Shown one piece after another: positions 16,122 to 64,000 of a stretch of 64,000 nucleotides of DNA. Made by a program: the position numbers and the translations under genes. This DNA is from Planctomycetota bacterium (GTDB taxonomy: Bacteria > Planctomycetota > UBA8108 > UBA1146). The stretch covers positions 3,907 to 67,906 of the forward strand of contig JAQBGV010000184.1 of NCBI GenBank assembly GCA_032128395.1. The letters are read 5' to 3'. The notes beneath the pieces are model-generated. The model made no database searches and was not told the DNA's origin. It saw only the letters and a list, made by a program, of their open reading frames with translations. Numbering within the stretch: position 1 is the stretch's first letter; every line of letters starts with the position of its first letter.

Positions 16122-17735
16122 ATGTCCAAGCAGATCCTTTTCGACGACGAGGCGCGCCGCCAGATGCTCTCCGGAGTACGCCAGCTCGCCCGGGCGGTCG
16201 GGCTCACGTATGGCCCCTCGGGGCGAAACGTGATGATCAATAAGAGTCTCGGCAAGGTGAGCGTAACGCGTGACGGCCTGAACGTCTCGCGCGAGGTCGA
16301 GATCGAGGAGCCGTTCCAGAACATGGGCGCAAAACTGCTCGGCGAAGTCGCGCAGAGGACCCACAAGGAGGTAGGGGATGGCACTACGAGCGCGGTGATC
16401 CTCGCGGACTCACTGATCCTCGAAGGACAACGATACGTTGGCCACGGCGTCAATCCGATCGCCCTCCGCGTTGGGATCGAGAAGGGCGTCGCGAGTGCGG
16501 TGGCCGCTCTCGAGAAGAGCGCGATTCCGGTCGACCAGCGCAAGATGATCGAACAGGTAGGAACGATCGCGAGCAATGACGCGGAGCTTGGCCAGCTCTT
16601 CGGCGAAGCGATGCACAAGGTCGGACTCCAGGGAGTCGTCACCGTGGAGGAGACCGACGGTGTAGAGACCCTCCTCGACCTGGTCGATGGATTCGAGATC
16701 GACAAGGGCTACGTCTCTCCCTATTTCATCACCGATGCCCAGAACCTAGAGGCGGTCCTCGATGACGTGCTGATCCTCGTCACCGACCGGAAGATTTCCT
16801 CGCTCGCCGAGATCCTCCCTGTGCTCGAGCAAGTGGTCACTTCCGGGAAACCGCTGCTCATCGTCGCCGATGACGTCACCGGCGAGGCTCTCGCCGCGCT
16901 GATTCTCAATCGGCTTCGGGGAGTCCTGAAGGTCGCCGCGATCAAGGCTCCGGGATTCGGAGATCGTCGCAAGGCGCTCCTCGAGGACTTCGCCGTGATG
17001 ACCGGCGGGACCTTCTTCGCGAAGGACACGGGCTTCGAATGGAGCAACACGACGACGAATGACCTCGGCCGGGCGAAGAGAGTCGAGATCTCGAAGGACA
17101 AGACGATCGTCTTCAAGGGGGCGGGGAAGAAGGCCGAGGTCGATGCTCGCTGCCGTCAAATCGAGGCGCAGATCGAGCAGACCACTTCGACCTACGACAA
17201 GGAGAAGCTCGAGGAGCGTCTCGCCAAGATCTCGGGGCAGATCGCAGTGATCCGGATCGGTGGCCATTCGGCAGTCGAGATCAAGGAGCGGAAGGGCCGC
17301 GCCGATAATGCGCTCCACGCCACCCGCGCGGCGATGGAGGAAGGGGTGATCCCAGGGGCGGGGACCGGTTACATCCGAGCTATCGCCGCAGTTCGGGAAA
17401 CACGGACCCGCGGTGACGAGAAGTTCGGGGTCGAGGTGGTCGCGCGAGCGTTGCGGGCCCCGCTGGTCCGGCTCGTCGACAATCTGGGACTCGACGGCCA
17501 GGCGATCGCGGGCGAAGTCGAGGAGCGTGGGGCCAAGGACGAGATTCACCACGGGTTCCTTGCGCAGAGCGGAAAAATTGTCGACCTGGTCCGCGCCGGC
17601 GTTCTCGATGCGGTGAAGGTGAGCCGGGTCTCGCTCCAGAACGCGGCGAGCGTGGCATCCCTCTACCTGACATCGGACACCGCGATCACGAATGTCGAGA
17701 AGAAGTCGGCGCCGGTCGAAGGGGCGATGCACTGA
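16122..17735 (+). CDS. groEL: Chaperonin GroEL, copy 2 (the annotated ORF from 16047 is a 5' extension)
   Basis: [16 protein letters not shown]..., [11 protein letters not shown] motif, full-length Cpn60; 50 bp after copy 1. Confidence 0.9.
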
Positions 17736-25404: not shown

Positions 25405-26183
25405 TCGAACTCGAGCGGAGGCCTCGCCTCTCGGGGTGGGGCTGCGAGGGGATTCAATGTCGCGATCGCTCGCTCGATGGTGCGAGGATCGAGCCCGCTT
25501 CCGGGAGGGAGTCGCAGTCCGAGATCGTAGATGTAGCCCGAGTCGTCGATGCGGAAGCTCAGAATGCAGCGGAATCGAGCCTGATCCTGACGGACGAAAC
25601 GGGCCCCCGGGTGGACCGACTCCAGAGCGAGTTGGACCCTCTCGCGCACTTCGATGAATCGGTATCGGGTCTCGGCGCTCTGCCTTCGGATCTTCTCCGC
25701 GGTCAGGTCGAGGAGAGCTTCGATGCGGGTCGTGTCGAGGTCGATTGGATCTGACTCAGGAGAGTCCAAGTCCGCGAACGGGACCGAGACCGTGACCGAG
25801 TCCGTGACCGAGTCCGTGACCGAGTCCGTGACCGAGTCCGTGACCGTGTCCGTGTCCGTGCCCGAGACCGAGACCGTTGCCGGGAGATGGTCCGGGACCT
25901 GGTCGGACACGGTTGCCAGGACCGGGTCCGTATCTGTCGCCATGATGGGCTCCTCGACGGCCCTTTCGAACGCCTCTGCTTCGGGCTCTCGCTGTGATTC
26001 CCTGGACACGATCGGGGGGGGAGGCTCAGCCGGCAGCCACTCGACCATGACGGCGATCGATCCCGATTCGCTCGTTTCTCCGGGGCCCGGGACCAACAGG
26101 AAGAACAGCAGATGGAGGCCTAGGGAGACCCACAACGCCACTGCGAGCGTTCGATCCTCCACGCGCAGCGCCCCCTCCACCAA
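25380..26183 (-). CDS. TonB-like energy transducer with an unusual (TDSV)n repeat linker
   Basis: N-terminal TM (LAVALWVSLGLHLLFFLLV), acidic repeat linker encoded by 12-bp tandem repeats, C-terminal region resembling the TonB_C fold (FRCILSFRIDDSGYIYDLGLRL). Confidence 0.4.
   Translation of the reverse strand: MVEGALRVEDRTLAVALWVSLGLHLLFFLLVPGPGETSESGSIAVMVEWLPAEPPPPIVSRESQREPEAEAFERAVEEPIMATDTDPVLATVSDQVPDHLPATVSVSGTDTDTVTDSVTDSVTDSVTDSVTVSVPFADLDSPESDPIDLDTTRIEALLDLTAEKIRRQSAETRYRFIEVRERVQLALESVHPGARFVRQDQARFRCILSFRIDDSGYIYDLGLRLPPGSGLDPRTIERAIATLNPLAAPPREARPPLEFEWRIDFLE
25782..25860 (+). repeat. 12-bp tandem repeat GACCGAGTCCGT (about 5 copies plus variants) inside the TonB-like gene, encoding (TDSV)n on the minus strand
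   Basis: Visible perfect periodicity in sequence. Confidence 0.6.
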
Positions 26184-30714: not shown

Positions 30715-31344
30715 ATGACCGAACGCGAGCCGCGCGGCGATGAGCTCCGGCCGACCCAGCTTCGAGAGCTGGTCGAGCGGGCTAGGAGTGGCGACCGCGA
30801 AGCGTTCACCGAACTGGTGGAACGGCACCGCGGGATCGCCGCGGCGAAGGCGTTCGGGATCCTCGGTGACGTGCACCTGACTGCGGATGCGTTGCAGGAG
30901 GCGTTCCTCAAGGCGTGGCAGAGGATCTTGACCCTGCGCGAACCGGAGCGGTTCTCAGGGTGGTTTCTGGCGATCGTCCAGAGGTCTTCGCTCGACCTTT
31001 CGCGACGACGCGGCCGTGTGTCGCTGCACGAGCAGGGGTGGGAAGAGCTGCCGGGGGAGGACGGAGCCGCTCCGGCGAAAGCGTCGGGGGCGGAGGCCCT
31101 CGTGCAGGAGGAACGCGGAGACCGGATCCGCGTGGCCCTTCGCGCCTTGCCTCCCGAATACCGTGAGGTGATCATCCTGAAGCACGCCGAGGGGCGCTCG
31201 TACCGCGAGATCGCCCGACTGCTCGGTACCACAGTGAAGGCGGTGGAGTCCCGCCTGTTCCGAGCCCGACAGCAACTCGGTCGGATGCTCGAGGAAAAGG
31301 AGCCGCCCGCTCGCGGGCGGCCTCCCAGAAAGGACGAGAGATGA
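30715..31344 (+). CDS. ECF (group IV) sigma-70 factor; alternative start at 30643
   Basis: Sigma-70 region 2 (LQEAFLKAWQRI) and region 4 (EVIILKHAEGRSYREIARLLGTTVKAVESRLFRARQQL). Confidence 0.8.
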   Translation: MTEREPRGDELRPTQLRELVERARSGDREAFTELVERHRGIAAAKAFGILGDVHLTADALQEAFLKAWQRILTLREPERFSGWFLAIVQRSSLDLSRRRGRVSLHEQGWEELPGEDGAAPAKASGAEALVQEERGDRIRVALRALPPEYREVIILKHAEGRSYREIARLLGTTVKAVESRLFRARQQLGRMLEEKEPPARGRPPRKDER

Positions 31345-32390
31345 CGCGGGCGATCTCGTGCGAGCTTGCGGACCGCTGGCTCTCGCGAGCGATCGACGAG
31401 GAGATCACCTCCGAAGAGGAGCAACTCCTCGAGTCGCATCTCGACACTTGCCCTCGCTGCCGCGAGGAGCGGGATCGTCTCGCCGTGGAGATCGGCCGGA
31501 TCGATCGCGGCTTTGCTGGGATCTCCGAGGAGCTCGACGCCCTGCTCAGGGGGCGGATGGGTCCGGAGCAGATCCTCGATGCTGAGATTCGGTCGTCGGC
31601 TGCTCCCCGCGGACGCCGGCTCGGCGCGCTCGCAGCCGTGGTTGCCATGGCGCTTGTCGCCGCTCTTCTGTTCTGGACCCTGCCCGACGGCTCTGCTACC
31701 GCTCCTCGAGTGATCGTCGAGTGGGGGGATGCCGGAGTCGAGTGGACGAGCGACGGAGTCCTTCGGTCGTTCGCTGGAAGTGGCGAGCAGTCGCTGGTAG
31801 CCGGGGATCGACTTCGACTCCCCGCGGGGGGAGATGCCCGGCTCACGTTCCCCGACGGCAGCATCGGCCGCCTCGGCCCCCAGAGCCAGCTCGCGTTCCG
31901 CGCGATCGGAAGCGACGACGAACTCGAGCTGGGCATCGGTCGCGCCGCCTTCGATATCACTCCCCGGGACGACGCACATTTCGTAGTGCTCACTCCCCTC
32001 GTTCGAATCGAAGTTGTCGGAACCCGATTCGGAGTGATTCACGAGAACGGTTGGACCGATGTGACGGTGGAGGAGGGAGAGGTCGTGGTCTCGCGGCGCA
32101 CCCGTGAGCCCGCGTTGATCCATCTCGGACCGGGGGCTGGGCTCAAACTTTCTTCGCAGACGATGTTCTACGACAGCGGTGGTTACATCTTGAGAGAGGG
32201 CGAACCGGATGCACGAATCGATTCGGGACCGCCGAGTTCCGGCCCTGGAACGAATGCGGGGGGGGACGCGGGACCGGACCCCACCGGCACCACCCCGCCG
32301 GGCTCGACTCCGCTGGACGGAGATGGTGAGCGAAAAAGACCGCTCGATATGCCTCCGGGGGAAACGCGGGGGAGTGGCGGCGGAAACTGA
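31341..32390 (+). CDS. Anti-sigma factor with N-terminal zf-HC2-like domain, one TM helix and periplasmic FecR domain
   Basis: HLDTCPRCREE motif, TM LGALAAVVAMALVAALLFW, FecR-like beta region; ATGA overlap with the sigma gene. Confidence 0.7.
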   Translation: MTRAISCELADRWLSRAIDEEITSEEEQLLESHLDTCPRCREERDRLAVEIGRIDRGFAGISEELDALLRGRMGPEQILDAEIRSSAAPRGRRLGALAAVVAMALVAALLFWTLPDGSATAPRVIVEWGDAGVEWTSDGVLRSFAGSGEQSLVAGDRLRLPAGGDARLTFPDGSIGRLGPQSQLAFRAIGSDDELELGIGRAAFDITPRDDAHFVVLTPLVRIEVVGTRFGVIHENGWTDVTVEEGEVVVSRRTREPALIHLGPGAGLKLSSQTMFYDSGGYILREGEPDARIDSGPPSSGPGTNAGGDAGPDPTGTTPPGSTPLDGDGERKRPLDMPPGETRGSGGGN

Positions 32391-32448
32391 CGCGGTGGGG
32401 GAGAGGGTCGTGGGAAGGAGCGCGGGGGAGTTCGCGTCGGTCGAGCTG

Positions 32449-32511
32449 CCGTCCGACCGGGCATGAGCAAGCCGGCGACGTCCGAATCGATGTTTTCCGA
32501 CAGCCTGCTAG
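32449..32511 (+). repeat. About 63-bp intergenic repeat, copy A (about 90 percent identical to the reverse complement of 39181..39243)
   Basis: ccgtccgac(c)gggc..gagcaagccggcgacgtccgaatcga.gtttt.cgac.gcct.ctag aligns between the two loci in opposite orientation; the shared spurious peptide RKTSIRTSPACS in two antisense ORFs confirms it. Confidence 0.7.
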
Positions 32512-33515
32512 TCCTGCGAGAAGAACACCAAACCTTCGATGAGATAGACCTCGCGGTTCTCGTAGATCCACCCCTCGTAGAATGAGTTCCCCTCGCGCTT
32601 CCAGGTGACACGATGCGGGTAGCCCCAGGCGAGGACGACTTCCTCTCGTTTCATCCCCTCCGCGACCTCATGTGACCCCGCCAGTTCTTTGTACTGCGGA
32701 GTGCTGCGCCCTCGGAGGAGGGAAGCTTGTTGGCGCCGCTCGCTCCAGCGCGCGATTTCATCGCGTAGGTGCGACTGATCGAGGGTCATCCGCTCCCCAT
32801 CCCGCTCGATCATGCCGGTCTCGTGCAGAAAAACGGATCGAGGTCGCCACCCCTTGCTCGACTCGATCAGTCCCAGGGACTCGAAGGTGCTCGTGACCGA
32901 GCGCTCGTTGCCGTACTTCTCGGCGAGTTGATTTGCGTAGGCGATCCATCGATCGTCCCCCTCGAAGTGCGGGTGGCCGATCTTGAGCCATGCGACTGCG
33001 GACTCCTGGTCGCGACCAAGTTCATCGGTGGCGAGGTCGGCCCAACGAGAGGCCACCTGTTCGCGGAACTCGATTTGTTCCTCACCGGTGGAGAGGCCGA
33101 GAGCCCAACCGATCACCGCTCGGCGGCGCGGGGACGGGGTCGAATCCAGGCGAGCAGAGAGCCCGGCGAACAAACTATCCGCCGCCGGTGTTCCCTGGAT
33201 GTCCTCCACCCGATACTCCCAACTCCCACCGTTCGATCGATTCGCGCGAGCGTGAATCTCGAGGATCCCTCGGCGGGTCTTCGAGTCCATGAGGACCTGG
33301 AATCGCTTCTCCTCAGGCACGATGAACTTCGCCTCGCACCCCTCGAGTTCCATTCGGACTCCGACTTGTGAGCTGTAGCGGGCGAGGACGCGGACCTGCG
33401 CTCCCTCGGTCGGCGAGAAGTGGGCGAGCTCCTCGGCGACGACCTGGGGTACGGTCTCCTCACCGCCGGGAGGCGCGACGAGGACGATGGCGAGGAGCAG
33501 CACGAGTCCGCTCAT
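32508..33515 (-). CDS. Secreted hypothetical protein, translationally coupled (ATGA overlap) to the upstream large regulatory protein; possible BamE-like C-terminal fold
   Basis: Signal/TM MSGLVLLLAIVLVAPPGG; coding-like; the annotated ORF start at 33626 is an extension. Confidence 0.45.
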   Translation of the reverse strand: MSGLVLLLAIVLVAPPGGEETVPQVVAEELAHFSPTEGAQVRVLARYSSQVGVRMELEGCEAKFIVPEEKRFQVLMDSKTRRGILEIHARANRSNGGSWEYRVEDIQGTPAADSLFAGLSARLDSTPSPRRRAVIGWALGLSTGEEQIEFREQVASRWADLATDELGRDQESAVAWLKIGHPHFEGDDRWIAYANQLAEKYGNERSVTSTFESLGLIESSKGWRPRSVFLHETGMIERDGERMTLDQSHLRDEIARWSERRQQASLLRGRSTPQYKELAGSHEVAEGMKREEVVLAWGYPHRVTWKREGNSFYEGWIYENREVYLIEGLVFFSQD

Positions 33516-36475
33516 CGAACTCTCCCTTCGAAGAGGAGCAGCTGGCCAGTCACGAGGAGGACGAGCACATCTCCGTCGGCAGTTGAGGCCAGACCCACGA
33601 CCGGGGCCGAGACCTGGATCGACCACTGCGGATCCCCGGTGGGGGAGACGCAGTACAGGCGACCATCGCGGCCGCCGAAGAACGTCTCCTCACCCGTCGT
33701 CAGCGGTGGACAGCTGAGGATCGTGGGGGCGGGGAACGCGGTCCACTTCGATCCGTCGAACTCGACCCATCGCCGATCCGTAGTCCCATAGAAGAGAGTG
33801 CCATCCCGTTCGACGACGTCGGTTGCAGGAGCGGGCCACTGCTCCACTCCCTCGGGCGCCTGGCGCGTCCCGTTACGGAGGAGCAGAGATCCATCGGAGA
33901 GAACCGCGGAGATCTCGCTCGGGTAGGCGCGCTCGTGGAGCAGCGCGAGGCCGGGGAGCTCGAGGATCCTCACCCGGTCGGCGCCATCGGTCACGACGAG
34001 CACGTCCCCTCGCACTGCGAGGCTCTTCACAGGGAATCCGGGTTCGGAACGGGCGATCACCCGACCGGTGTTCCGGTCGAGAAGTTGCACCCGCCCCGTC
34101 TCGTCCCCGATCGCCATGTCTCCCCCTGGAATCGAGCTGACCGCGAGTACCGGGGAATCGAGGCGGACCCCCCAACGGGTTTCCCAGCCAGTGGTCTCGA
34201 CGCAGTGGATCTCGCCGTCGTAGCCGGCGATCACGATCACATCTTCTTCCGCCACTACTCTCGCCGAGGGGTGCCCCGGTTTCCCACCGATGAACACCCG
34301 GCGGGCGGTCTTTGTGGCCTCTCGACTGTCGGGGAGCGCATAGACGCGTCCATCCCGACACGGGACCAGGATGAACCCTGGGATCGAGGTTGCGGCGCGA
34401 TCGAGCCCGCCGGGGAGAGCTCCCGCCGCGAGGGGGGCACGGGTCATCTGGATGCGAAGGCGAGCCCGGCCATCGTCGGTGTGTTTTAGCTCCTGGTCTT
34501 CGCAGCCGGGGCGGGACAGACGGATCACGAACGGCTCGGATCCCGGTTCGAAGTGATGGACGTAAGGGGTTCGACCGATGCCGACCCCCGCGACGTCGAT
34601 CCGCGCGCCGGGAGGGTCGGTCTCGATCGAGAGGGGGAGACGGATCTCCGCCTGGACCTCGAGGGGAAGGCTCCGGACCGGCCCCTCGAGGAGGCGATCG
34701 AGGGAGGCTCGCGCCTCCTTGAATCGACCCTCGTTCTCAGCGGTCCTCGAACTGGTGAGCAGCTCCTCTGCGTGCTGACGACGTCGCTCACGCGACTGAC
34801 GGTCGCGTTGCTCGAGGTCCTCGACGCGGGCCTTGTCTTCCTGCCGGAGGCGCACGATACGGGCATCGAGATCCTGGAGTGCGTCGCGGCTCCGTGACGC
34901 GACGGTGGACATCCCGTAGTCGGCGACGATCTCGCGGAGGTGCGCCCGTGCTTCCTCGAGTTGAACGGTCTCGGCCTCGGCGATCTGGAGGCGCAAGCTC
35001 TCCTGGAAGAGGCCCCGTGCACGGGTTTCGTAACGGAGTGCGGGAATCGCGGCGGCAACGATGAGGACGGTCGCGACGGTCAAAACGATGCGGCGAATGC
35101 GGCGAAATTTCTGGACTCCCTCCTCCCTGTGGATGAGGGACTCGAGCTTGTTGCGCAGCCCAGTGATCTCAGGGTCGATCTCAAACAGGAGTCGAGCGGC
35201 GCGAATCGACTCCGGTCGACTCTTCGTCTCTTCAGCGAGTCGGAGTGCCCGCTCGAGGTAGTCGACGGCGAGGCCGATCTGGCCGATCTTCTGGGCGAGT
35301 TCCCCGCGTTCCACCCAATACTGGAACTTGCCGCGTTCGCTCTCCTCGAGCTCAGCGAGAAGTGCTTCTGCCTCGTGGAACTCACCCTGCCGCTTGAGCG
35401 CGTTGAGTAGCTCGACTCGAAGCTCTTCGAGCGAACGAGGGGAGGCGGCACTGCGCAGGGTCCAGAGTTGTTGCAGGACCGCGAGGTCGTTCGGGTGGAG
35501 ATCGCGGAGGACCCGTCCGATCTCCCATGCCTCGGCCATCCGACTCTCGAGGCGGAGGCGCTCGAGCGCCTGGAAGAGGATTGCCGAGGCATCCTTCTTG
35601 CGTCCCACCTCGACCATGTAGCGGCCGACTTCGACCAGGAACGAGGCGTCCCGGCTCTGCGGGATCCCCCACTCCTGGAGGAAGCGGTAAAGATCGGCCG
35701 CGCGATCCCGCTCGTTGTGTTTCCGGTGCTGTCGCGCGACCTCGAGCATTTCGGTGAAGTCGAGGGTGCGGAGCCACCCCTCCTCCACGAACCGGTAGAG
35801 GATCTTCAGGGTCTGGAACCGACTGGTCGGGGCGACCCTTTGGATCTGCTCGACCGGGGCGGACTGCGCGCAGTACCCCCAGATCTCCCGGTCACGGTCG
35901 GAGATCTCGGCCCCGGCGGGAATCGCCTCGACCTGTCGGGCGACCCAGATCTTCGGATCGGGGAGCCGGGTTCTGATGATGCGGGACTCGTCGAGTTGAC
36001 GCAGACCCTCGATGAGCACCGACTGCGGGTCGACCCGGACCTGGGTGTACTTCTGCATGGGTTCGAGGAGATCGGGTGGACAGAAGTCGGGGACGAATTC
36101 GAAGTCCCCCTCTTCCCACATCAGGAGCTCGTAGAGCTCTTCCTCGAACTTGGTTCGGAGTGCGGCCTGGAGGTGTTCCGGCTCGATGACCCCCTGCTCG
36201 ATGAGGATGCGACCGAACAGCTTGTCAGAGTTCTTCTGCTCTTCGACCGCGGCTTCGATCTGTTCCCTGGAGACCACCCCGGCGCGCAGGAGGACCTCTC
36301 CTAGGAGGATCGTTCCGGACCCGGAACCGAGGAAAGCGATCGAGCCGGTCGCGAAGTATATCGTCTTTTTTTCGTGGCGGGAGGTGACGTAGAGGGTGCC
36401 GGTGTGCTGATTGCAGGCCAGGGTCTGGAAGAGTTCTCCCAAACCGAAGTGCTGCAAATGCCCTTTGAGCGCCAT
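33512..36475 (-). CDS. 987-aa multidomain membrane protein: DUF4388-like N-terminus, tandem MshEN/T2SSE_N motifs, helical/TPR-like region, TM helix, coiled coil, PEGA domain, PQQ-like beta-propeller
   Basis: MALKGHLQHFGLGELFQTLACNQHTGTLYV (DUF4388-like); LLGEVLLRAGVVSREQIEAAVEEQ...LFGRILIEQGVIEPEHLQAAL (MshEN motifs); TM VLTVATVLIVAAAIPAL; PEGA-like IDVAGVGIGRTPYVHHFEPG; PQQ blades. ATG at 36475 chosen; upstream 62 codons of the annotated ORF are rejected. Confidence 0.6.
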   Translation of the reverse strand: MALKGHLQHFGLGELFQTLACNQHTGTLYVTSRHEKKTIYFATGSIAFLGSGSGTILLGEVLLRAGVVSREQIEAAVEEQKNSDKLFGRILIEQGVIEPEHLQAALRTKFEEELYELLMWEEGDFEFVPDFCPPDLLEPMQKYTQVRVDPQSVLIEGLRQLDESRIIRTRLPDPKIWVARQVEAIPAGAEISDRDREIWGYCAQSAPVEQIQRVAPTSRFQTLKILYRFVEEGWLRTLDFTEMLEVARQHRKHNERDRAADLYRFLQEWGIPQSRDASFLVEVGRYMVEVGRKKDASAILFQALERLRLESRMAEAWEIGRVLRDLHPNDLAVLQQLWTLRSAASPRSLEELRVELLNALKRQGEFHEAEALLAELEESERGKFQYWVERGELAQKIGQIGLAVDYLERALRLAEETKSRPESIRAARLLFEIDPEITGLRNKLESLIHREEGVQKFRRIRRIVLTVATVLIVAAAIPALRYETRARGLFQESLRLQIAEAETVQLEEARAHLREIVADYGMSTVASRSRDALQDLDARIVRLRQEDKARVEDLEQRDRQSRERRRQHAEELLTSSRTAENEGRFKEARASLDRLLEGPVRSLPLEVQAEIRLPLSIETDPPGARIDVAGVGIGRTPYVHHFEPGSEPFVIRLSRPGCEDQELKHTDDGRARLRIQMTRAPLAAGALPGGLDRAATSIPGFILVPCRDGRVYALPDSREATKTARRVFIGGKPGHPSARVVAEEDVIVIAGYDGEIHCVETTGWETRWGVRLDSPVLAVSSIPGGDMAIGDETGRVQLLDRNTGRVIARSEPGFPVKSLAVRGDVLVVTDGADRVRILELPGLALLHERAYPSEISAVLSDGSLLLRNGTRQAPEGVEQWPAPATDVVERDGTLFYGTTDRRWVEFDGSKWTAFPAPTILSCPPLTTGEETFFGGRDGRLYCVSPTGDPQWSIQVSAPVVGLASTADGDVLVLLVTGQLLLFEGRVR

Positions 36476-36645
36476 GCTTGCTCCGGCTCGACCCACGGTT
36501 CGCCTATGCCGATTCGGCCGGGGCGAACGGAACCGAAGACCGCGGAGCACCCCCCCATTCCCGGACTCCCGCGGAGGAGGATGGTCCTCGACGCCGGGGG
36601 AGGTACGATCCGGGATCGCTCGCCTGCGATCTCCGAGAAGGATAC

Positions 36646-37887
36646 GGCATGACTCTCGCATCGACGAACGAGGAGGGGGACCGGAGCCGCGTCCAACCCC
36701 GAGTTCAGCTCTCCCCGGGGCTCTATGTCCACATCCCGTTCTGTACGGTCCGGTGCTCGTATTGTGACTTTCACGTCGCCGGATTTCGGGAGGGGATCGC
36801 GGTTCGATACGTGGACACGCTCCTCGAGGAGGCGCGAGAATTGTCTGAGGAGGGGTTTCGTCCGCAGACGATCTTCATCGGCGGAGGGACGCCATCCACG
36901 CTCGCGATCCGCGACTGGACGAGGCTCCTCGGTGGATTGTCGGAGTTCTTCGGTGGGGAACAGCTTCTCGAGTGGACCGTCGAAGCAAATCCGGGGACGG
37001 TCGACGGTCCGAAGGCCCGCATCGCTCGGGATGCGGGGGTGGATCGGATCAGTACCGGCGCACAGACCTTCGACCCGGCGGGACTCGCGGTCCTCGGAAG
37101 GCAACATGGAGCCGATGTGGTCGCTGGCGCCCACGAGATCCTGCGCGATGCGGGATTCGAGCGGCTGAGTCTCGACCTGATCATCGGGTGGCCAGGACAG
37201 ACGATCGACTCCCTCGCCGGGGATCTCCGCGCGATCGCAGAGATCGATCCCGACCATGTCAGCCTGTATCACCTCAGCTACGAGAAGGGGACGCTGCTCG
37301 AGCGCAGACGTCTCGCGGGACAAATTGCTCCACTGTCGGACCCCGCAGCGCTCCGGGTCGCGCGTCGCGCATTGGGCGGCTTGGGCGCAGCGGGCTATAC
37401 TCGCTACGAGGTGTCGAACCTCTGCCGATCCGGGCAGGCCTCGCTGCACAACCTCAACTACTGGCAGCGTGGGACCTACCGCGGGATCGGGTCCGGGGCC
37501 GCGAGCTTCGACGGCCGCCTGCGCTGGCGAAACCGACCGGATGTCGGCGCATACCTGCGAGGAGGCGGCCGACCGGAGCGGGTCGAGGTGGAGGAGCTCA
37601 GTGCGGAGACCGCACTCGAGGAGCTCCTCCTCCTCACCCTGCGGCTGACGGATGGGATCACCCTCGACCGGTTCTGGGAGTTCGCGGGCACCTCGCCACA
37701 GGATTTGTGCCGGGAGGCCCTGCCCGAGTTGGTCGAAGCGGGTCTCCTCTGCTGCGACGATGGAACGATGCGGGCCACGGCACGTGGCTTCGAGGTGCTC
37801 GACGCTGTGATCGTGCGCCTCTGGGAAGACTGTCAGCGTTTCGCGAGGCGAAGAGAATGTCCCAGCCGAACTCCTCTCCAGACTTGA
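36646..37887 (+). CDS. hemW: Radical SAM HemN/HemW-family protein (heme chaperone / oxygen-independent coproporphyrinogen oxidase-like)
   Basis: LYVHIPFCTVRCSYCDF CxxxCxxC radical SAM motif, HemN_C-like tail; the annotated ORF start at 36478 is likely an extension. Confidence 0.75.
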   Translation, partial: GMTLASTNEEGDRSRVQPRVQLSPGLYVHIPFCTVRCSYCDFHVAGFREGIAVRYVDTLLEEARELSEEGFRPQTIFIGGGTPSTLAIRDWTRLLGGLSEFFGGEQLLEWTVEANPGTVDGPKARIARDAGVDRISTGAQTFDPAGLAVLGRQHGADVVAGAHEILRDAGFERLSLDLIIGWPGQTIDSLAGDLRAIAEIDPDHVSLYHLSYEKGTLLERRRLAGQIAPLSDPAALRVARRALGGLGAAGYTRYEVSNLCRSGQASLHNLNYWQRGTYRGIGSGAASFDGRLRWRNRPDVGAYLRGGGRPERVEVEELSAETALEELLLLTLRLTDGITLDRFWEFAGTSPQDLCREALPELVEAGLLCCDDGTMRATARGFEVLDAVIVRLWEDCQRFARRRECPSRTPLQT

Positions 37888-38438
37888 TGTTGCTCCTTCG
37901 GATGATCCGCTACCGCGGATGGCTCGAGGAGCCGGAAATCGAGTCCGTTCTTTCCGAGTGTGGAATGCAGGTGAGCGCGGACGAGCTCCTCGAGTTCCTC
38001 TGCGATGGCGAGCACCTCAGCTCGGACCAGGCCGAAGATGCCCGCCGGTTCCTCCGCGAGAAGAGCCGCTCCCTGCGCCTGAACTCGGGGGATCGGTTCC
38101 GGATCGACCGGAGCTTCGGGCAGATCGCGCTCGAGCACGGCTGGCTCGACGCCCCGGGGCTCGAAGCGGCCCTCCTCGAGCAGGAGCGCCTCAGGCGCCT
38201 GCGCCTGAACTTCAGAATCGGTGAGGTCCTGGTTCGACTCGGTTCCCTCCAGGTCGACCAGGTTCGGTCGATTCTGAAGGAGCAGGGATTCGACCTCTCT
38301 TGCTGTCGCGATTGCGACACACTGATCGAGGGCGCCACCAGCGATGTGGGGGACGGGACCTGCCCCGAGTGTGGCGGCGAACTCCGTCCCCCCGTGTTCC
38401 TCGATCCCGTCCCCGCCGACCGCCACAGGTCGAAGTAG
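37857..38438 (+). CDS. MshEN-like tandem-motif protein with C-terminal four-Cys zinc ribbon
   Basis: FGQIALEHGWLDAPGLEAALLEQ and RIGEVLVRLGSLQVDQVRSILKEQ motifs; CCRDCD...CPECGG; the long annotated ORF from 36972 is artefactual upstream of this Met. Confidence 0.45.
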   Translation: MSQPNSSPDLMLLLRMIRYRGWLEEPEIESVLSECGMQVSADELLEFLCDGEHLSSDQAEDARRFLREKSRSLRLNSGDRFRIDRSFGQIALEHGWLDAPGLEAALLEQERLRRLRLNFRIGEVLVRLGSLQVDQVRSILKEQGFDLSCCRDCDTLIEGATSDVGDGTCPECGGELRPPVFLDPVPADRHRSK

Positions 38439-38596
38439 CGGATCGCGTCCCGACCTCGCGCCATCCCTGGCAATTCGCCTGAGAAAGTGCTTCCGATCCG
38501 AACGATCGGAAGCACTCTCTCATCCTAGTGTTGGCACCAGGCTCTTGCTTCCGTCCCGATCCCAGGTTGGCATCGGGGCCGGGACCGAGTCCCGGG

Positions 38597-39184
38597 ATGG
38601 GAGGCGGCATGGATCCGAGAGAACTCTTGCTCGGACGTGAGCTCGTCGCGAGCGAACTTCTGCGCCCTGAGCACCTTCGGATCGCGCTCGACTATCAGGC
38701 CCAGTTGCACGGCCGGCTCGAGGACATTCTGGTCAAGCTCGACTTCATCGACGAGCGGAAGCTGAGTGAGTTCGTCGCCGAGCGCGAGCATATGCGCACC
38801 GTCGACCTCACCAGTCGGGAGATCGACGAACAGCTGATGGAGCGGATCCCTCGCGACGTGATCGAGCGGCACGAAGTGCTGCCGTTCCGACTCGACGCCG
38901 AGACGGTCCTCCTCGCGATGAGCGATCCGACTGATTTCCGGGCGATCGACGAGGTGCAGTTCCTGACGAGTTGCAAGGTCGAGACCGCCATCGCCCCGCG
39001 CACCGCCCTCCGGGAGCGGATCGAACGATACTACGACACCCTCCCTGCACCCCCGCCCGCCCCGCTTCCGCTCGAGGAGCGACTCCTCGAGCGGGTTGCG
39101 GATCCCGCGATGCAGGCGCTGGCCCGGATTCTCCTGCGCAAGGGCGTCATTCAAGCGGAGGATTGGGAGCAGGAGATTCGCTAG
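38597..39184 (+). CDS. Stand-alone T2SSE_N (GspE/PilB N-terminal) domain protein
   Basis: LLGRELVASELLRPEHLRIALDYQ...LEDILVKLDFIDERKLSEFVAE...IDEQLMERIPRDVIERHEVLPFRLDAETVLLAMSDPTDFRAIDEVQFLT matches the GspE N1 domain consensus end to end. Confidence 0.6.
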   Translation: MGGGMDPRELLLGRELVASELLRPEHLRIALDYQAQLHGRLEDILVKLDFIDERKLSEFVAEREHMRTVDLTSREIDEQLMERIPRDVIERHEVLPFRLDAETVLLAMSDPTDFRAIDEVQFLTSCKVETAIAPRTALRERIERYYDTLPAPPPAPLPLEERLLERVADPAMQALARILLRKGVIQAEDWEQEIR

Positions 39185-39243
39185 GAGGCAGTCGAAAAAC
39201 CTCGATTCGGACGTCGCCGGCTTGCTCCCGCCCTGTCGGACGG
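39181..39243 (-). repeat. About 63-bp intergenic repeat, copy B (inverted orientation relative to copy A)
   Basis: See copy A; lies between convergent gene ends 39184 and 39296. Confidence 0.7.
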
Positions 39244-39295
39244 CGGCTCAGATCGAGGGTTCCACCCCTGCGATCGACCTGTCTGGGCCGGGACA

Positions 39296-39964
39296 CTAGT
39301 CGTAGAGATCGTCCCCGCGTGCTCCGCGATCGAGCGTGCCGTTCTCGGAGACGCTCTCGTCGAGGCAATTCGGGCCGGTCGAGTAGACTCGCCAGCTTCC
39401 GTCCTCGGCGAGGAGGCGGTAGGGCGCTCCGAACGGATCGAGCAAGCTACCCACAGGGGAGATCGGAATTCCCTCGAATGCCTTCGGGTCCGCGGCGCGC
39501 AACGTCTCACCCCATCGCTCGATCAGGGGACTCCCGCCGGGGGCCGGCAGGTGCTTCTCGACCGCGCTCTGGATCTTCTCGATCTGGTCGTGGGTCTGGT
39601 CGATGAGCTTGAGTTGAGCTCGCCCCCCCGACAGCGTCCCGATCATGAGCTCCACGGCGAGGAGGAGGACGAAAACGACGCCGATCAGGAACGGGAGAAG
39701 CGCCAGCGAGACACGTCGGGGGTGCCCGCTCGCAGACCGGAGCGGTTCGCGGAACTGGAGATGGCGCGGCGGTGGCGACTCGATCCTGCCGAGCTGCCAA
39801 CGAAGGAGCTCCTGGTCGAGGCGGATCGCGTCTGCAAGCTCCCGGCAACTCCAGCAGCGCTGCAGATGGTCCTCGGCCTCGACCGAGGTCAGATCCTCAC
39901 AGACCCATGCCTCGAGCGCGCGCCGGCACTCCTCCGGGAGCACGCCGGGGGAATTCGTGCTCAT
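39296..39964 (-). CDS. Anti-sigma factor (zf-HC2) fused to a pseudopilin-like TM helix and GspG-like periplasmic domain
   Basis: N-terminal HLQRCWSCREL motif; TM LLLAVELMIGTLSG resembling the pilin hydrophobic helix with Glu; C-terminal DPFGAPYRLLAEDGSWRVYSTGPN...GDDL resembling the GspG DPWGNxYxL...G.DG region; ATGA overlap with upstream ECF sigma. Confidence 0.55.
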   Translation of the reverse strand: MSTNSPGVLPEECRRALEAWVCEDLTSVEAEDHLQRCWSCRELADAIRLDQELLRWQLGRIESPPPRHLQFREPLRSASGHPRRVSLALLPFLIGVVFVLLLAVELMIGTLSGGRAQLKLIDQTHDQIEKIQSAVEKHLPAPGGSPLIERWGETLRAADPKAFEGIPISPVGSLLDPFGAPYRLLAEDGSWRVYSTGPNCLDESVSENGTLDRGARGDDLYD

Positions 39965-40602
39965 TCTCGATCTCCTTCTCCGGAATCTGTCTTTTCGACC
40001 TCCCGCGATTCCCGCGGCAGGGATTCCTTCGCGAGCCTCTCGCGGAGGAGCAGATGCGCACGAAAGATCCGGTTCCGGATCGTTCCCTCCGGCTCTTCGA
40101 GGAGTCGCGCGATCTGAGCCGGGGTCAGCCCCGACCAGTATCTCAGGATCAAGACCGTGCGGTACAGCTCGGGGATCTCCCCGAGAATCGTGCGGAGAGC
40201 CTCTGCTCGCTGCGGGTCGAGCCCAGGCTCGCCAGCGCTCACCTCGGCGGGTTCTTCACGCTCGGGTAGCCGGGTCTCGGGCCTCACCCCGAACCATCGG
40301 TGCGAGTCGATCACCTTTCTCGACGCGATCGCGAGTATCCAGGAGACCGCGCTCTCCGAATTCCGCAGTGAGCCACGCTTCTCCCAGGCCTGGAGAAAGC
40401 TCTCCTGAGTCAGATCCTCGGCTCGCTCTCGGTCCGAAATCCGCTGCCGGATGAAGACGTAGACGAGCCCCCAGAGTTGCTCGACAACCCGGTGGAAGGC
40501 TTCGCGATCCCCCGCGAAGGCGAGCCGGAGGGTATCCGGATCGGGTCGGTGTCGTTTCCCACCCTGCTCGTTGGTCCGATCCTCGGCCTCCTCCGAGCAC
40601 AT
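39961..40602 (-). CDS. ECF (group IV) sigma-70 factor
   Basis: Region 2 EDLTQESFLQAWEK, region 4 VLILRYWSGLTPAQIARLLEEPEGTIRNRIFRAHLLL. Confidence 0.8.
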   Translation of the reverse strand: MCSEEAEDRTNEQGGKRHRPDPDTLRLAFAGDREAFHRVVEQLWGLVYVFIRQRISDRERAEDLTQESFLQAWEKRGSLRNSESAVSWILAIASRKVIDSHRWFGVRPETRLPEREEPAEVSAGEPGLDPQRAEALRTILGEIPELYRTVLILRYWSGLTPAQIARLLEEPEGTIRNRIFRAHLLLRERLAKESLPRESREVEKTDSGEGDRE

Positions 40603-40784
40603 CCTGAGGTCCCTTCGACCGAGGGGAGTCGTGTCGCATCCACCCGCAGCTGGAGACGTTGCGGCGACGGGGCCGTTGCTCCTCCGTTTGACGCCGGCTC
40701 GTACCCCATCATAGGCTTCCTCAAGGAACCATCGATGGATCGAACCTCACCAGATCCTCGGACACAGGATGGGGAACGGGTGCA

Positions 40785-41789
40785 ATGGCGAAGAAGAAGA
40801 AGAGCGAAGAAGAGTTGTCTCCGGCGATGCAGACGGAGGACCTGACCGGTGCATTCCCCCCGGGGGACTTCACCGGCTCCTTCCCGACCGAAGGGCTCGG
40901 CCATCCGGTCGGCGCGACCGGGGAGCATGGGCTCCGGACCGAAGGTCACTCCGGTGACCTTGGCATGCCGACGGAGGGATTCACGGGTGAGCAGCCGATC
41001 CCGACGGAGGGTTTTACTTCCTCCTACGGCATGCCCACCAGCAGCATGACCGGGGACCATGGCATTTTGCCCACGGAGGGATTCATCGCGCATGGAGCAC
41101 CGATGGGAGGCCAGGAGCTCGATGAACTCGATGACGTGCTCGTTCTCCTCCCGGAGGAAGACGACGTACGGGGCTACACCGGCGAGGTGATCCGCACCGA
41201 GGGGATGGGTGATCCGACGATCCAAGCGACGACCGGGTACGTGCCTTCGAGCGAGTCCCCGACCGGGATCGAGGATGTCCAACTCCTTTCACAGCATCCC
41301 GACTTCGGGTTGCACCCAGTCGACACTCTCCCTGACGCGCAGGTCCTCGAAGAGCTCCCCGACATCGAAGATGTCGAGGACATCACCTCCCTCGTCGAGG
41401 AGGCAGTCGCCTACGACCTCCCCCCGCCGATGGCGGACTTCGAAGATGAGTTCGGCGCGATGCCGAGCCGCTCCGGTCGCCGTCGAAGCGGCTTCGGCGC
41501 GTTTCTCCGTATTGCCGCCGCGGCCGCGTTGCTCGTGACCGGGGTTCTCTACGGACCGGAGCTCTACGACCGCTATCTCGAGCAGGGCAACACAGCCCTC
41601 GCGAGCGGCTCGAACGGCGGCGGTGGCACGTCCACGGGCCCACCCGTGGCGATCACCGATCCCGTCACCACTGGCCCGGGATCCGGTGACCCAGGGGCCG
41701 GTGTCCATCCGGTCCAGGTCCAGTTTCGGGATTGGGTCGATGGGGTGTTGGCCGCAAACTTCGGGACCAACGTCCCGTCGGATCGATAG
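40785..41789 (+). CDS. Acidic hypothetical protein with degenerate (P/R)TEG(F/L/H) repeats and a C-terminal hydrophobic segment
   Basis: Six spaced xTEGx repeats mirrored by repeated ccgacggagggattcac DNA units; TM-like FGAFLRIAAAAALLVTGVLYG. Confidence 0.4.
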   Translation: MAKKKKSEEELSPAMQTEDLTGAFPPGDFTGSFPTEGLGHPVGATGEHGLRTEGHSGDLGMPTEGFTGEQPIPTEGFTSSYGMPTSSMTGDHGILPTEGFIAHGAPMGGQELDELDDVLVLLPEEDDVRGYTGEVIRTEGMGDPTIQATTGYVPSSESPTGIEDVQLLSQHPDFGLHPVDTLPDAQVLEELPDIEDVEDITSLVEEAVAYDLPPPMADFEDEFGAMPSRSGRRRSGFGAFLRIAAAAALLVTGVLYGPELYDRYLEQGNTALASGSNGGGGTSTGPPVAITDPVTTGPGSGDPGAGVHPVQVQFRDWVDGVLAANFGTNVPSDR

Positions 41790-42956: not shown

Positions 42957-43601
42957 CGCCAAGTGCAACACGCCGGACTGCGATCTGTCGAGAGTCGTCC
43001 ATGAGCCCGAGGGGCGTGTGGACCCCCGCGAAGGGTCCGCGTCAGGATCGCGGCGTGGGAGAGTCAAGAGATCTCACTCTCGGAGTTCTCACTCTCTCGA
43101 GGGGTCGTCACTAGACGGCACCACGCGGTCGGAGCACAACGGCGCGTTGTCCCGCCGCTGGCTCTCGATCAGGGGAGGACAGCCCCCGGGGGCAGAATTG
43201 CTTCGGAGGAAGAGGATCGCGCGGAGGAAGGACGGGGCTCAGGCCCTGGTTTCCGGATTCTGGGCTCAGGAGGACGCTTCCTTACCCTCTCGGTCCCCGT
43301 GGTCATCCACGGGTGGCCGCGGTCCGGTGCAAATTCGACCGGGCAGAACGACGCGTTTTGGAGTTTGGGGTGCTCCTGTTGTTCCGATGGGCCGCGCATT
43401 CACTACTTGCATCATTGGCACTCGAATCATGGGCCCTCGAATCGACGGCACTCGAGTCATCGGGCTCACATTCCCAACCAGCAGGTGCGCAAGAAATTGC
43501 GCGTCGTCCGTCGGGGGCGACGCCGAGTAACGAATCGTGTCCCTTGTGGGGATACGAGGCATCAGGATTGAGGGGGATTCCCCCTGAAGGAGTGTTTCAC
43601 G

Positions 43602-43901
43602 ATGGCGAAGAAGAGAGCGGCGAAGAAGAAGACTGCGAAGCGGAAGACTGCGAAGCGGAAGACTGCGAAGCGGAAGACTGCGAAGCGGAAGACTGCGAAG
43701 CGGAAGACCAAGAAGAAGGCGGCAAAGAAGACGACCGCCAAGCGTAAGACGAAGAAGAAGGCTGCGAAGAAGACCGCGAAGCGGAAGACCAAGAAGAAGG
43801 CGGCGAGTAAGAAAACCGCCAAGAAGAGGACCGCAAAGCGGAAGACCAAGAAGAAGGCGGCGCGTAAGAAGACCGCCAAGAAGGCGACTACGTCAAAGTA
43901 A
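43602..43901 (+). CDS. Histone H1-like Lys/Ala-rich nucleoid protein (KKTAKRKT repeats)
   Basis: 99-aa protein almost entirely AKK/KRKT repeats, encoded by 15-bp tandem DNA repeats; RBS AGGAG upstream. Confidence 0.65.
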   Translation: MAKKRAAKKKTAKRKTAKRKTAKRKTAKRKTAKRKTKKKAAKKTTAKRKTKKKAAKKTAKRKTKKKAASKKTAKKRTAKRKTKKKAARKKTAKKATTSK

Positions 43902-46849: not shown

Positions 46850-46887
46850 CCCTCCCCGATGGAGCTCGCGATCGGGCTCGATCCGAG

Positions 46888-46947
46888 GACTGGGTAGATC
46901 GAGAACTGGGCAGATCGAGAACTGGGTAGATCAAGGACTGGGGTCGG
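46888..46947 (+). repeat. 3.75 tandem copies of a 16-bp unit (g/a)ACTGGG(t/c)AGATC(g/a)AG upstream of the efflux operon
   Basis: gactgggtagatcgag aactgggcagatcgag aactgggtagatcaag gactggggtcgg; 80 bp before the MFP start; a TATACT -10-like element follows at 46959. Confidence 0.6.
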
Positions 46948-55180: not shown

Positions 55181-55232
55181 GCGATCTTGACACCCCCCCG
55201 GCCCACCCTATGATCGCCGCTCTTCCATCGAT

Positions 55233-60804: not shown

Positions 60805-60935
60805 CGCTCACGACACCCGGATCGAACATTTCCGACGGCGTCCGAGCCGCTCCCCTTGTCCCCGGAGCGGGCCCTGATTAGAGTGCCACCCCGGCGAAAA
60901 GCCGCGTCCGCACTGAGAAAATCGGTTGGGGAAGG

Positions 60936-61967: not shown

Positions 61968-63995
61968 GTGGCCCAGAGGATCCGCAACATCGCCATCGCC
62001 GGACACGGAACCTGCGGCAAGACGACTCTGCTCGAAACCCTTCTGGCCCTCGGGCGAGCGATCCCCCGCGTGGGGAAGGTCGACGACGGGACCTCGATCC
62101 TCGACCATTCCTCGGAGGAGCGCTCCCACCGATTCACGGTCGCCGCGACTCCCTGCTACATCGAGCATGATGGGGTTCTCCTCCAGATGCTCGACACGCC
62201 CGGATACGCCGACTTCCGTGGTGCGGTGACCGAGGCATTCGCGGCGGTCGAGACTGCCCTCATCGCGATCGACGGCTCCGCTGGGATCCGGGTGAACACC
62301 CGCAGGGTCTGGGATGACGCCGAGCGCGCCGGCCTCGGTCGAGTGATCGTGATCATGCGACTCGACACCGAGAACGCTCGATTCGACGAGCTGGTCGAGG
62401 AGATCCGCAGCACTTTCGGAAAGCAGTGCGTTCCCCTCGAGTTTCCCGATGAAGCGGGCCCCTCCTTCAGTTCGGTCGAGAACGTGCTCGAGACGGGAGC
62501 GACCGGTTCGGAGCGCTCCCAGCGGATGTTCCAACAGATGCGCGAGGCGATCATCGAGTCGGACGAATCGATGATGGAGCGCTATCTTGCCGAGGAGCAG
62601 ATCTCCGACGCGGAGGTACGAGACACGTTCTCGACCGCGGTCCTCTCGGGTGCCGTCGTGCCGATTCTCTGCTGCTCATCGGTCAAGGGGATCGGGATCA
62701 ACAAGTTGCTCCACTTCCTGGTCTCGATTCCTCCGACCCATGATTCCGCGGTGCAACGAAAGCTGGTCGACGCGGAGGGGAACGAGAGCGTGGGGTCTGC
62801 GTCGGGAAGTGCGAGTGATCCGCTGATCGCCCAGGTGTTCAAGATCGAGCTCGACCCTTTCGTCGGGAAGCTCTCCTACGTCCGCATCCACTCGGGAACG
62901 CTGACTTCGAACACGCCGGTCCAGAACTTGACCCGGCGGGTGAAGGAGAAAGTGAACACGATCCTACGGATGCAGGGGAAAGACCATACGACGATCGAGA
63001 GCGCCGGTCCGGGCGAGATCGTCGCTCTCCCCAAAGTGGAGGAACTTTCGGTAGGGGACTGCCTCGGCGATGGAAAGTCATCGCTTTTCCCGGCGAAGAT
63101 CATCCACCCGAGCTCGATGGTGAAGCTTGCGGTCGAGCCGAAGAATCGGAACGACGAGACCAAGCTCTCCGAAGCGTTGAACAGGCTGCACGAGGCCGAC
63201 CCGACCTTCCAGTCGGCCCGGATCCGCTCTACCCACGAGCTCGTCATCGCGGGGAGGTCCTCCCTGCACCTCGATCTGATCCTCGAGCGCCTGAAGGACC
63301 AGTTCAAGATCGAGGTGGTGACGCACGTCCCGACCACCGCGTACCTCGAGTCGATCGGGGGGAGCTCCGAGGCGCACCATCGCCACCGGAAGCAGACGGG
63401 GGGGCGTGGCCAGTTCGGCGAGGTCTACATCCGTCTCGCCCCCGCCGATCGAGAGAAGTCACTCGTTTTCGTCAACAAGGTCGTCGGTGGCTCCGTCCCC
63501 CGGGAGTACATCCCCGCCGTCGAGAAGGGGGTGGCCGAGACGATGGAACACGGGGTGCTCGCGGGCTGCCCGGTGATCGGGTGCGAAGTGACCCTCTACG
63601 ATGGTGGGTATCACGCCGTCGACAGCTCCGAGATGGCGTTCAGGACTGCCGGTCGCGAGGCGTTCAAGAAGGCGTTTCTCGAGGCAAAGCCGGTCCTCCT
63701 CGAGCCGATCCTCAATCTCGAGGTGCATGTCCCCGGTCAATTCATGGGGGACATCACCGGCGATCTGAACAGCCGCCGTGGCCGGATCCAGGGGATGGAT
63801 CAGGATGGGGACCTGCAGGTGATCAAGGCTCAAGTTCCCGAGGCGGAGATGAAGACCTATTCCACCGATCTTCGCTCGATGACCGGGGGCGAGGGGAGCT
63901 ATTCCGTCGATTTTTCCCACTACGACACGGTTCCGGCGAGCGTCCAGCAGCAGATCGTGGCGGCGATCAAGAAGCAGCAGGAAGAAGCGAGCTAA
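61968..63995 (+). CDS. Elongation factor G paralog (EF-G-like translational GTPase) with divergent G1 and switch II
   Basis: Five-domain EF-G architecture; G1 AGHGTCGKTT (canonical AHIDAGKTT), switch II DTPGYADF (canonical DTPGHVDF), G4 present; GTG start with AGGAGAGG RBS. Confidence 0.8.
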   Translation: MAQRIRNIAIAGHGTCGKTTLLETLLALGRAIPRVGKVDDGTSILDHSSEERSHRFTVAATPCYIEHDGVLLQMLDTPGYADFRGAVTEAFAAVETALIAIDGSAGIRVNTRRVWDDAERAGLGRVIVIMRLDTENARFDELVEEIRSTFGKQCVPLEFPDEAGPSFSSVENVLETGATGSERSQRMFQQMREAIIESDESMMERYLAEEQISDAEVRDTFSTAVLSGAVVPILCCSSVKGIGINKLLHFLVSIPPTHDSAVQRKLVDAEGNESVGSASGSASDPLIAQVFKIELDPFVGKLSYVRIHSGTLTSNTPVQNLTRRVKEKVNTILRMQGKDHTTIESAGPGEIVALPKVEELSVGDCLGDGKSSLFPAKIIHPSSMVKLAVEPKNRNDETKLSEALNRLHEADPTFQSARIRSTHELVIAGRSSLHLDLILERLKDQFKIEVVTHVPTTAYLESIGGSSEAHHRHRKQTGGRGQFGEVYIRLAPADREKSLVFVNKVVGGSVPREYIPAVEKGVAETMEHGVLAGCPVIGCEVTLYDGGYHAVDSSEMAFRTAGREAFKKAFLEAKPVLLEPILNLEVHVPGQFMGDITGDLNSRRGRIQGMDQDGDLQVIKAQVPEAEMKTYSTDLRSMTGGEGSYSVDFSHYDTVPASVQQQIVAAIKKQQEEAS

Positions 63996-64000
63996 GAGGC

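Follow-up and report, generated by a model that had tools for sequence, protein, structure and literature searches.

The window analysed here is a stretch of 64,000 nucleotides from a bacterium whose nearest named relatives, judged by an EF-G-like protein encoded at the right edge of the window, are Planctomycetota MAGs (62% identity). Inside it, a block of five genes lies between two ECF sigma factor operons, and the gap at each end of the block holds one copy of an inverted repeat; these are called copies A and B, and a gene whose 3′ end carries a copy is called its host. The gene layout given below was compiled from the ORF listing, Pfam, and gene calls on public contigs.

30715-31344, plus strand: ECF sigma gene of the left flank, upstream of the anti-sigma gene
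31341..32390, plus strand: zf-HC2/FecR anti-sigma gene, outer neighbour of copy A
32508..33515, minus strand: 335-aa gene without a Pfam match, host of copy A
33512-36475, minus strand: 987-aa gene (DUF4388/TPR/PEGA/PQQ beta-propeller), inside the block
Inside the block, plus strand: HemW-like radical-SAM gene (radical SAM/HemN_C by Pfam)
Inside the block between the HemW-like and MshEN genes, plus strand: 193-aa gene
38609..39184, plus strand: MshEN-domain gene of 191 aa, inside the block, host of copy B
39296..39964, minus strand: 222-aa gene, outer neighbour of copy B, overlapping the end of the ECF sigma gene
39961-40602, minus strand: ECF sigma gene of the right flank, upstream of the 222-aa gene
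61968..63995, plus strand: EF-G-like GTPase gene of 675 aa, host of copy C (described below), at the right window edge

The 335-aa and MshEN genes are the ends of two divergent operons, with their 3′ ends directed outward. A Pfam scan of ten proteins (five from the block and five flanking it) found sigma-70 regions and FecR, DUF4388/PEGA/PQQ, radical SAM/HemN_C and MshEN domains, and no recombinase or transposase domain in the block. The window showed neither a TnpA nor a TnpB gene. The 222-aa protein is weakly similar to the zf-HC2 anti-sigma protein, at its N-terminus alone.

The two copies that bracket the block are placed as follows.

32443..32511, minus strand: copy A, 69 nt, nhmmer E 3e-28; its minus-strand start is the C-TAG that ends the 335-aa gene
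39181..39265, plus strand: copy B, with a 69-nt core at 39181-39249; its start is the C-TAG that ends the MshEN gene

Aligned with the reverse complement of 39181-39249, the segment 32443-32511 is identical at 61 of 69 positions (88%), far above chance. An inverted-repeat search of the window returns the two as arms of 69 nt, 88% complementary and spaced 6669 nt apart. They form by far its longest and best inverted pair, all others measuring 30-46 nt at 71-83%. The initial annotation had reported an inverted pair of about 63 bp and roughly 90% identity, each copy in a gap between convergent gene ends; the pair is real, with 56 identities over those narrower 63-nt coordinates, and the gaps around A and B are both convergent. 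A 26-nt core, GAGCAAGCCGGCGACGTCCGAATCGA, runs uninterrupted through both copies and occurs exactly twice in the window even when up to three mismatches are allowed, and not once in 100 dinucleotide-preserving shuffles. The nhmmer profile made from A and B recovers both copies at E of about 1e-28. At the CTAG end, each copy overlaps the TAG stop of its inner gene. At the other end, the outer parts of the two gaps have no significant similarity to each other (270 of 2000 shuffles score equally well), and a longer element common to A and B was rejected on this ground; the outer 16 nt of B are still family sequence, as similarity at the family level continues to 39265 and the stretch 39250-39265 is exactly common to a fragment, E, that lies beside copy C. 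A coding reading of the element was likewise rejected, its frames containing stops or lacking a codon-position pattern.

Further copies were found away from the block, in the window and past its right end.

63992..64000, plus strand: first 9 nt of copy C, CTAAGAGGC, at the TAA stop of the EF-G-like gene
60810..60846, minus strand: copy D, a marginal, decayed partial copy that matches the element in its 5′ half at about 69% identity
L163 (MAG contig JAQBCW010000113.1) 8991-9014, inverted: fragment E, 24 nt, identical at 24 of 24 positions to window 39242-39265

The last bases of the window, TAAGAGGC, already resemble the element, and the rest of copy C past the window end was read in Logan contig L162 and at 8907-8985 of L163. 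With the profile from A and B alone, copy C is found at E 8.6e-9 (nhmmer); it aligns across all 69 nt, with 72% identity to A and 76% to B. Copy D reaches E 0.28 with that profile and 0.009 with one made from A, B and C, has CTCG in place of CTAG, and adjoins no stop codon. Fragment E begins 5 nt past the aligned end of copy C and, since it is identical to 39242-39265, copy B must reach at least to 39265. The family therefore has at least three full copies in about 64 kb of genome, where one fragment and one decayed copy were also seen; all are extragenic, and the first 32 kb of the window holds no copy. Copies elsewhere that are unlinked to the block undo, in kind, the proposal of the initial annotation that the repeat is a boundary specific to the block.

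The three full copies all start in a common register, C-TAR-[G/C]AGGC[A/T]GTCG, in the sense orientation of the host gene, and each has either CTAG or CTAA where it meets the stop codon. The stop of the 335-aa gene falls at the same aligned position as in its orthologues and that of the MshEN gene at the same position as in its closest orthologue; because these host proteins end at the residue where their orthologues end, the copies follow native stops and have truncated no gene. Stop usage among 37 genes of the organism is TGA in 28, TAG in 8 and TAA in 1, the only TAA-terminated gene being the EF-G-like host of copy C, and with such usage, finding TAR in all three hosts has a p of about 0.014. 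The 64 kb contain 27 CTAG and 3 CTAA, against 204 and 104 expected from base composition. No target-site duplication was found at the outer ends of A or B. The outer boundary of copy A has no matching CTAR or TA (there is no TA in 32391-32442), and at copy B the only other CTAG is the stop of the neighbouring gene, 46 nt past the 69-nt boundary. That the element adjoins the stop exactly, and does so in three independent gaps, suggests a specific target site and not selection acting on position.

The initial annotation had suggested folding each copy as RNA, and no significant hairpin appears in A or B. Fold z-scores for A, B, both strands and the whole gaps range from -1.2 to +2.1, no better than dinucleotide shuffles. 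In self-complementarity, 1713 of 2000 shuffles do as well as copy A and 1048 of 2000 as well as copy B. For terminal inverted repeats, the first 22 nt were aligned with the reverse complement of the last 22 nt, and shuffled sequences scored at least as high locally in 1634 of 5000 cases for A and in 4281 of 5000 for B. Neither strand has a terminator-like site in 32391-32507 or 39185-39295, and the GTTTT[C/T] run is preceded by no hairpin conserved between the copies. In Rfam 15 the element has no match at the gathering threshold, the sole match in the window being a tRNA-Leu at 55233-55318.

These results bear on the first reading given by the initial annotation, that of a REP-like bidirectional terminator. 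REP-like palindromic units, whose hairpins would serve as bidirectional terminators or mRNA stabilisers between convergent genes, would be expected to be dispersed, intergenic and at gene 3′ ends, as the copies here are. The outer end of copy C can also pair with fragment E, in a stem of 16 positions that contains two mismatches and closes a 15-nt loop (z about -2); this arrangement recalls the doublets of REPs. The hairpins of A and B are, however, insignificant and their self-complementarity is at shuffle level, neither gap has a hairpin followed by a T-run, and the 69-nt unit is much longer than the 20-40 nt typical of REPs. What stands of this reading is the dispersed repeat, given copies C, D and E elsewhere; what falls is the palindrome and the terminator, given the folds, the shuffles and the lack of any terminator-like site in the two gaps. 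It is right in spirit, the element being a dispersed extragenic repeat, and fails on the defining palindrome, with terminator activity unsupported; as an explanation of the pair we consider it improbable.

All three full copies begin strictly at the stop codon and run in sense with the gene, which would also suit a functional 3′-UTR RNA module (a protein or RNase site, or a stabiliser) that co-regulates the ends of the inner operons and the EF-G-like gene. In the consensus fold that RNAalifold computes for the gene-sense strand from all three copies, a predicted 8-bp stem closes the element, with G-U pairs that are possible on that strand alone, and A and B have an identical core of 26-32 nt. 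Against this, RNAalifold gives a covariation term close to zero, folding is about as good on the opposite strand, and fold energies do not surpass those of shuffles. With 8 differences over 69 positions, an unbroken match of 26 nt is not unusual (p of about 0.15-0.2 by a rough estimate), and of the within-species SNPs across 13 kb, the one located in a repeat is inside the element. No relative (described below) has the element in its orthologous gaps, so it is no conserved regulator of the block. A module of this sort is unlikely, with a small share of our belief left to it.

The same locus is found, with 2 SNPs in 13 kb, on contig JAQBCW010000211.1 of MAG GCA_032124895.1, and also on short Logan contigs from runs ERR5010711 and ERR5010722, the latter run being cited in a Baltic Sea metagenome study. 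Position 32491, in copy A, is T in the window and G in three other assemblies, as it is in copy B; with G at this position the exact core of A and B lengthens to 32 nt and their identity rises to 62 of 69. Logan contigs, which are built from 31-base words, end inside the repeats (L004 and L005 at 32493, L019 at 39215 and L002 at 39238), as is expected of a 32-nt exact repeat in such an assembly, and the repeat accounts for short-read assembly breaks at these two points. The Logan ends fall 1-10 nt short of the two-copy prediction for 31-base words, which may be an indirect sign of more copies or of variants, and we do not rely on it.

Relatives of the MshEN protein are 66-78% identical to that of the window, and the contigs examined for the locus are L009 (JGI metagenome), L011-L016 (NCBI MAG, ENA and JGI) and L017 (Logan). 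All related contigs have one gene order, which extends from ADSL and RsgA across both sigma modules, and in all of them the block is oriented as in the window; in six loci from three diverged relatives, with MshEN proteins 66-76% identical to that of the window, the order reads sigma/anti-sigma, 335 aa, 987 aa, HemW, 193 aa, MshEN, anti-sigma/sigma. The element is absent from both gaps, and from the remaining fetched DNA, of L009, L011-L016 and L017. Orthologous sites thus have a presence/absence polymorphism, the gaps being empty in relatives despite the synteny. Gaps measure 37 and 46 nt in L011, the most distant relative, about 70 nt in L017, and 141 and 421 nt in L009; those of the window measure 117 and 111 nt, which leaves 48 and 42 nt once 69 nt are taken away. 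The gaps of L009 are filled with other repeats and hairpins, and in this closest long relative the orthologous gap has a G+C-rich hairpin with a T-run, of unrelated sequence. No inverted pair links both orthologous gaps in L009, L011 or L017. Because relatives without copies keep the gene order and orientation, the block is ancestral in place and the repeats are later arrivals. Sequence comparison thus indicates two separate gains of the element in this lineage, one per gap.

The second reading of the initial annotation, in which a mobilised or invertible segment of 6.7 kb has the pair as its terminal inverted repeats, must be weighed against this history. Inverted copies with an exact core of 26-32 nt do bracket a discrete gene block, and Logan short-read contigs do break in them, but such breaks are expected from a 32-nt exact repeat and 31-base words. 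Block position and orientation are the same in every relative, all of which lack the repeat, and a single orientation is found across the window, the NCBI MAG contig and all longer assemblies of the organism. The Pfam scan gave the block no recombinase or transposase domain, and a third copy lies elsewhere. Inversion would moreover be without consequence, since the four flanking genes all have their 3′ ends towards the breakpoints: the junctions would remain convergent throughout, and no promoter or coding sequence would be swapped. On the synteny in repeat-less relatives, the lack of a recombinase in the block, the third copy and the junctions that stay convergent after inversion, we reject the invertible segment. 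This reading is close to refuted already and very improbable.

The locus is symmetric, both flanks having an ECF sigma gene and an anti-sigma gene that read inward, and the pair could be taken for what is left of an ancient segmental duplication, in inverted orientation, of a sigma/anti-sigma module whose tail gene conversion had kept alike. The two flanking sigma factors are, however, only 31% identical, and their partner proteins have in common a short N-terminal match and little more. The 88% repeat is therefore far better conserved than its coding neighbours, which argues that it is no remnant of a duplicated module. Relatives have both modules and no repeat, and copy C lies elsewhere; a segmental duplication is thus already contradicted by the relatives, and we hold it to be extremely unlikely.

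The same neighbourhood, A and B each lying downstream of an ECF sigma/anti-sigma operon, might instead mean that the element is a promoter or operator for the neighbouring ECF sigma factors, common to both modules. The outer flank of B contains GGAAC-N16-CGTCC, with a spacing like that of the ECF consensus, and the element has two CGTCCGA motifs. The -35-like box, however, is outside the conserved part and is not kept in A, and copy C is behind the EF-G-like gene, with no ECF operon among the called upstream genes. Relatives with the same ECF modules lack the element, and the motifs conserved upstream of their sigma-2 gene (GAAGCCTATGATGG...CGTCAAA) and of their sigma-1 gene are not found in it. 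The idea was rejected on the footprints upstream of both sigma genes in four species, which are unlike the element, and very little probability attaches to it.

Searches outside the organism gave no further member of the family. The exact 22-mer core has no match among GTDB species representatives (a collection outside which the MAG of this organism lies) and none in JGI metagenomes. A looser 16-mer gave at least 120 metagenome matches and 22 IMG/VR matches; the 142 matches listed were set aside as chance, with flanking identities of at most 39 of 69 and a mean of 31. Among plasmids and phages the best E was 0.07 (distant blastn with a 101-nt query). A six-frame peptide search of 5.8 billion proteins returned nothing at E <= 10, a weak negative for copies in called ORFs. 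The 987-aa protein matched only Pyrinomonadaceae fragments among the species representatives, at 28-31% identity.

Taken as a whole, copies A and B are probably members of a short, lineage-specific family of dispersed intergenic repeats that sit behind stop codons, and they bracket the block by accident. Each full copy lies directly 3′ of a C-TAG or C-TAA stop and lengthens an already short gap by some 69-85 nt; the opposite directions of their host genes explain why A and B are inverted to one another. The most likely mechanism would be that of a small non-autonomous element, spread by copy-and-paste through an enzyme encoded elsewhere. Its mobility would be target-site-specific, with a preference for the rare (C)TAR tetranucleotide, a target that in a 65% G+C genome would be tolerated almost solely at stop codons. 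The insertions would be neutral for the host, and any consequence for it (a longer 3′ UTR, for example) would be secondary. That A and B both lie beside ECF sigma/anti-sigma operons could hint at a common function rather than chance.

Several known systems invite comparison with such a dispersed family. REP/BIME/REPIN sequences (RAYT, Y1 HUH) are likewise short, non-coding and dispersed at gene 3′ ends, often directly after stops. Their copies diverge by 10-30%, and they have a conserved end tetranucleotide (GTAG at one end in enterobacterial REPs, CTAR here) and mosaic or inverted partial arrangements, as in copy C with fragment E. The present element differs in that its unit has no significant palindrome, is 69-85 nt long, and was seen in a handful of copies. 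Intrinsic bidirectional terminators also lie between convergent gene ends; the element, however, has no G+C-rich hairpin with a T-run on either strand. Correia/NEMIS, ERIC and RU-1/2/3 are bacterial MITEs (reviewed in PMC2229807). MITEs are similar as small, non-autonomous intergenic repeats of one lineage, with empty sites in relatives and insertion-site preferences, but the element has no supported terminal inverted repeats and no outer target-site duplication at A or B, and is G+C-rich. Membership among MITEs fails on the terminal inverted repeats and the target-site duplication. With neither terminal inverted repeats nor a palindrome that is statistically supported, neither the classical MITE model nor the classical REP model fits. 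Elements of the IS200/IS605 type insert 3′ of a specific tetra- or pentanucleotide, with no duplication and no terminal inverted repeats. The C-TAR junction, the lack of a target-site duplication and the lack of terminal inverted repeats are in keeping with these single-strand transposons and their derivatives (PATEs), whereas the subterminal hairpins that define them at both ends are not evident here. By analogy, the presumed insertion behaviour of the element most resembles IS200/IS605- or RAYT-type insertion 3′ of a short target.

We give a slim chance to the stronger proposal that the element belongs to a new type of small mobile element, without palindrome or terminal inverted repeats, that inserts one way at C-TAR stops and makes no target duplication. 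If true, an uncultivated lineage would possess an unrecognised mechanism, by transposition or akin to retrohoming, that targets stop codons. For annotation, the pair should not be taken as the boundary of a genomic island, a transposon or a phase-variable segment: the conserved ECF-flanked block is ancestral and the repeats are later passengers. The wider interest lies in the exact, oriented anchoring at C-TAR stops in three of three full copies. Were this anchoring to hold genome-wide, it would make a clean case of target-driven repeat build-up at gene ends in a high-G+C genome, and would offer a handle on the enzyme responsible.

Tandem arrays were found at several places in the window, both between and within genes.

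Tandem arrays in the window
25782-25877, within ORF 25380-26183 (- strand): 12-nt unit GACCGAGTCCGT, 8 copies, 89% matches
43600-43890, + strand: AAG/GCG-rich array with a 15-nt period
46884-46942: 16-nt unit CGAGAACTGGGTAGAT, 3.7 copies, 88% matches
55345-55533, directly 3′ of tRNA-Leu(GAG) (55232-55319): 80-nt unit

The array following the tRNA gene holds two tandem copies of its unit, 97% identical to each other, after which the unit's final 29 nt recur as a third, partial copy. A short hairpin preceded by a T-run (TTTTTTTGCATTTCCGCTGACGCGGAAATCGCC...) marks the start of both full copies, and the array may represent the duplication of an att-like or terminator region. L162, a Logan contig of the same organism that continues past the right edge of the window, starts within it. 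The 16-nt direct repeats lie in the gap 5′ of ORF 47027-48496, which is followed by the two large paralogous ORFs 48501-52094 and 52091-55180, which look like RND-type transporter genes; the array could be an operator-like direct-repeat set.

Other repeats lie in ORFs or in potential coding sequence. The 12-nt array is a short peptide-repeat region of its ORF. On the + strand the AAG/GCG-rich array would translate as a lysine/alanine-rich low-complexity protein (MAKKRAAKKKTAKRK...), and both the contig of the same locus in the NCBI MAG and one Logan contig terminate within it. The neighboring ORFs 14441-16072 and 16047-17735 have 72-74-nt blocks in common, at 73-74% identity and a constant offset of 1681 nt; the translation of one such block looks GroEL-like, and the two ORFs appear to be tandem chaperonin paralogues.

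The gap orthologous to gap B, the convergent intergenic gap holding the right-hand inverted repeat copy, was found in L009 (10580-11000), a metagenome contig of a relative at 76% identity. Its repeat set differs, including a 29-nt near-perfect palindrome and a unit of ~110 nt, rich in GGCTCGCTCGCTCGCC, in 2-3 tandem copies. The convergent gaps of this locus thus seem to accumulate lineage-specific repeats. Between the window and the NCBI MAG contig there are only two differences in 13 kb, at 30644 and 32491, both intergenic. Position 32491 is inside copy A, the left-hand inverted repeat copy, and is T in the window and G in three other assemblies, the G state agreeing with copy B. The T may reflect a simple mutation in the strain that the window comes from, or else gene conversion or an error in the consensus.

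Pfam searches (E <= 0.01) of the block that the inverted copies bracket bore out two labels of the initial annotation only partly. The large protein (33512-36475), described there as DUF4388-MshEN-PEGA-PQQ, kept DUF4388, PEGA and PQQ/beta-propeller, and TPR was also detected; MshEN was not found in it at this threshold. The label of two GspE-N proteins was reproduced only in part, the 193-aa protein (37857-38438) yielding no Pfam domain at the same cutoff.

A four-species comparison gave conserved blocks in a divergent promoter region, between an ECF sigma gene (39961-40602) and a 334-aa gene (40785-41789).

40640-40730, - strand: conserved blocks GAAGCCTATGATGG and CGTCAAA

Lying upstream of the sigma gene, these blocks are a candidate ECF-type autoregulatory promoter. 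Distinct ECF sigma operons at 30715-32390, which includes a FecR-type anti-sigma gene, and at 39296-40602 both point inward at one five-gene block (335 aa, 987 aa DUF4388/PEGA/PQQ, HemW, 193 aa and MshEN). Since this mirror-image arrangement is kept in every relative fetched (L009 and L011-L017, contigs without the inverted repeat), it suggests that the ECF operons and the five-gene block form a functional unit that does not depend on the repeat.
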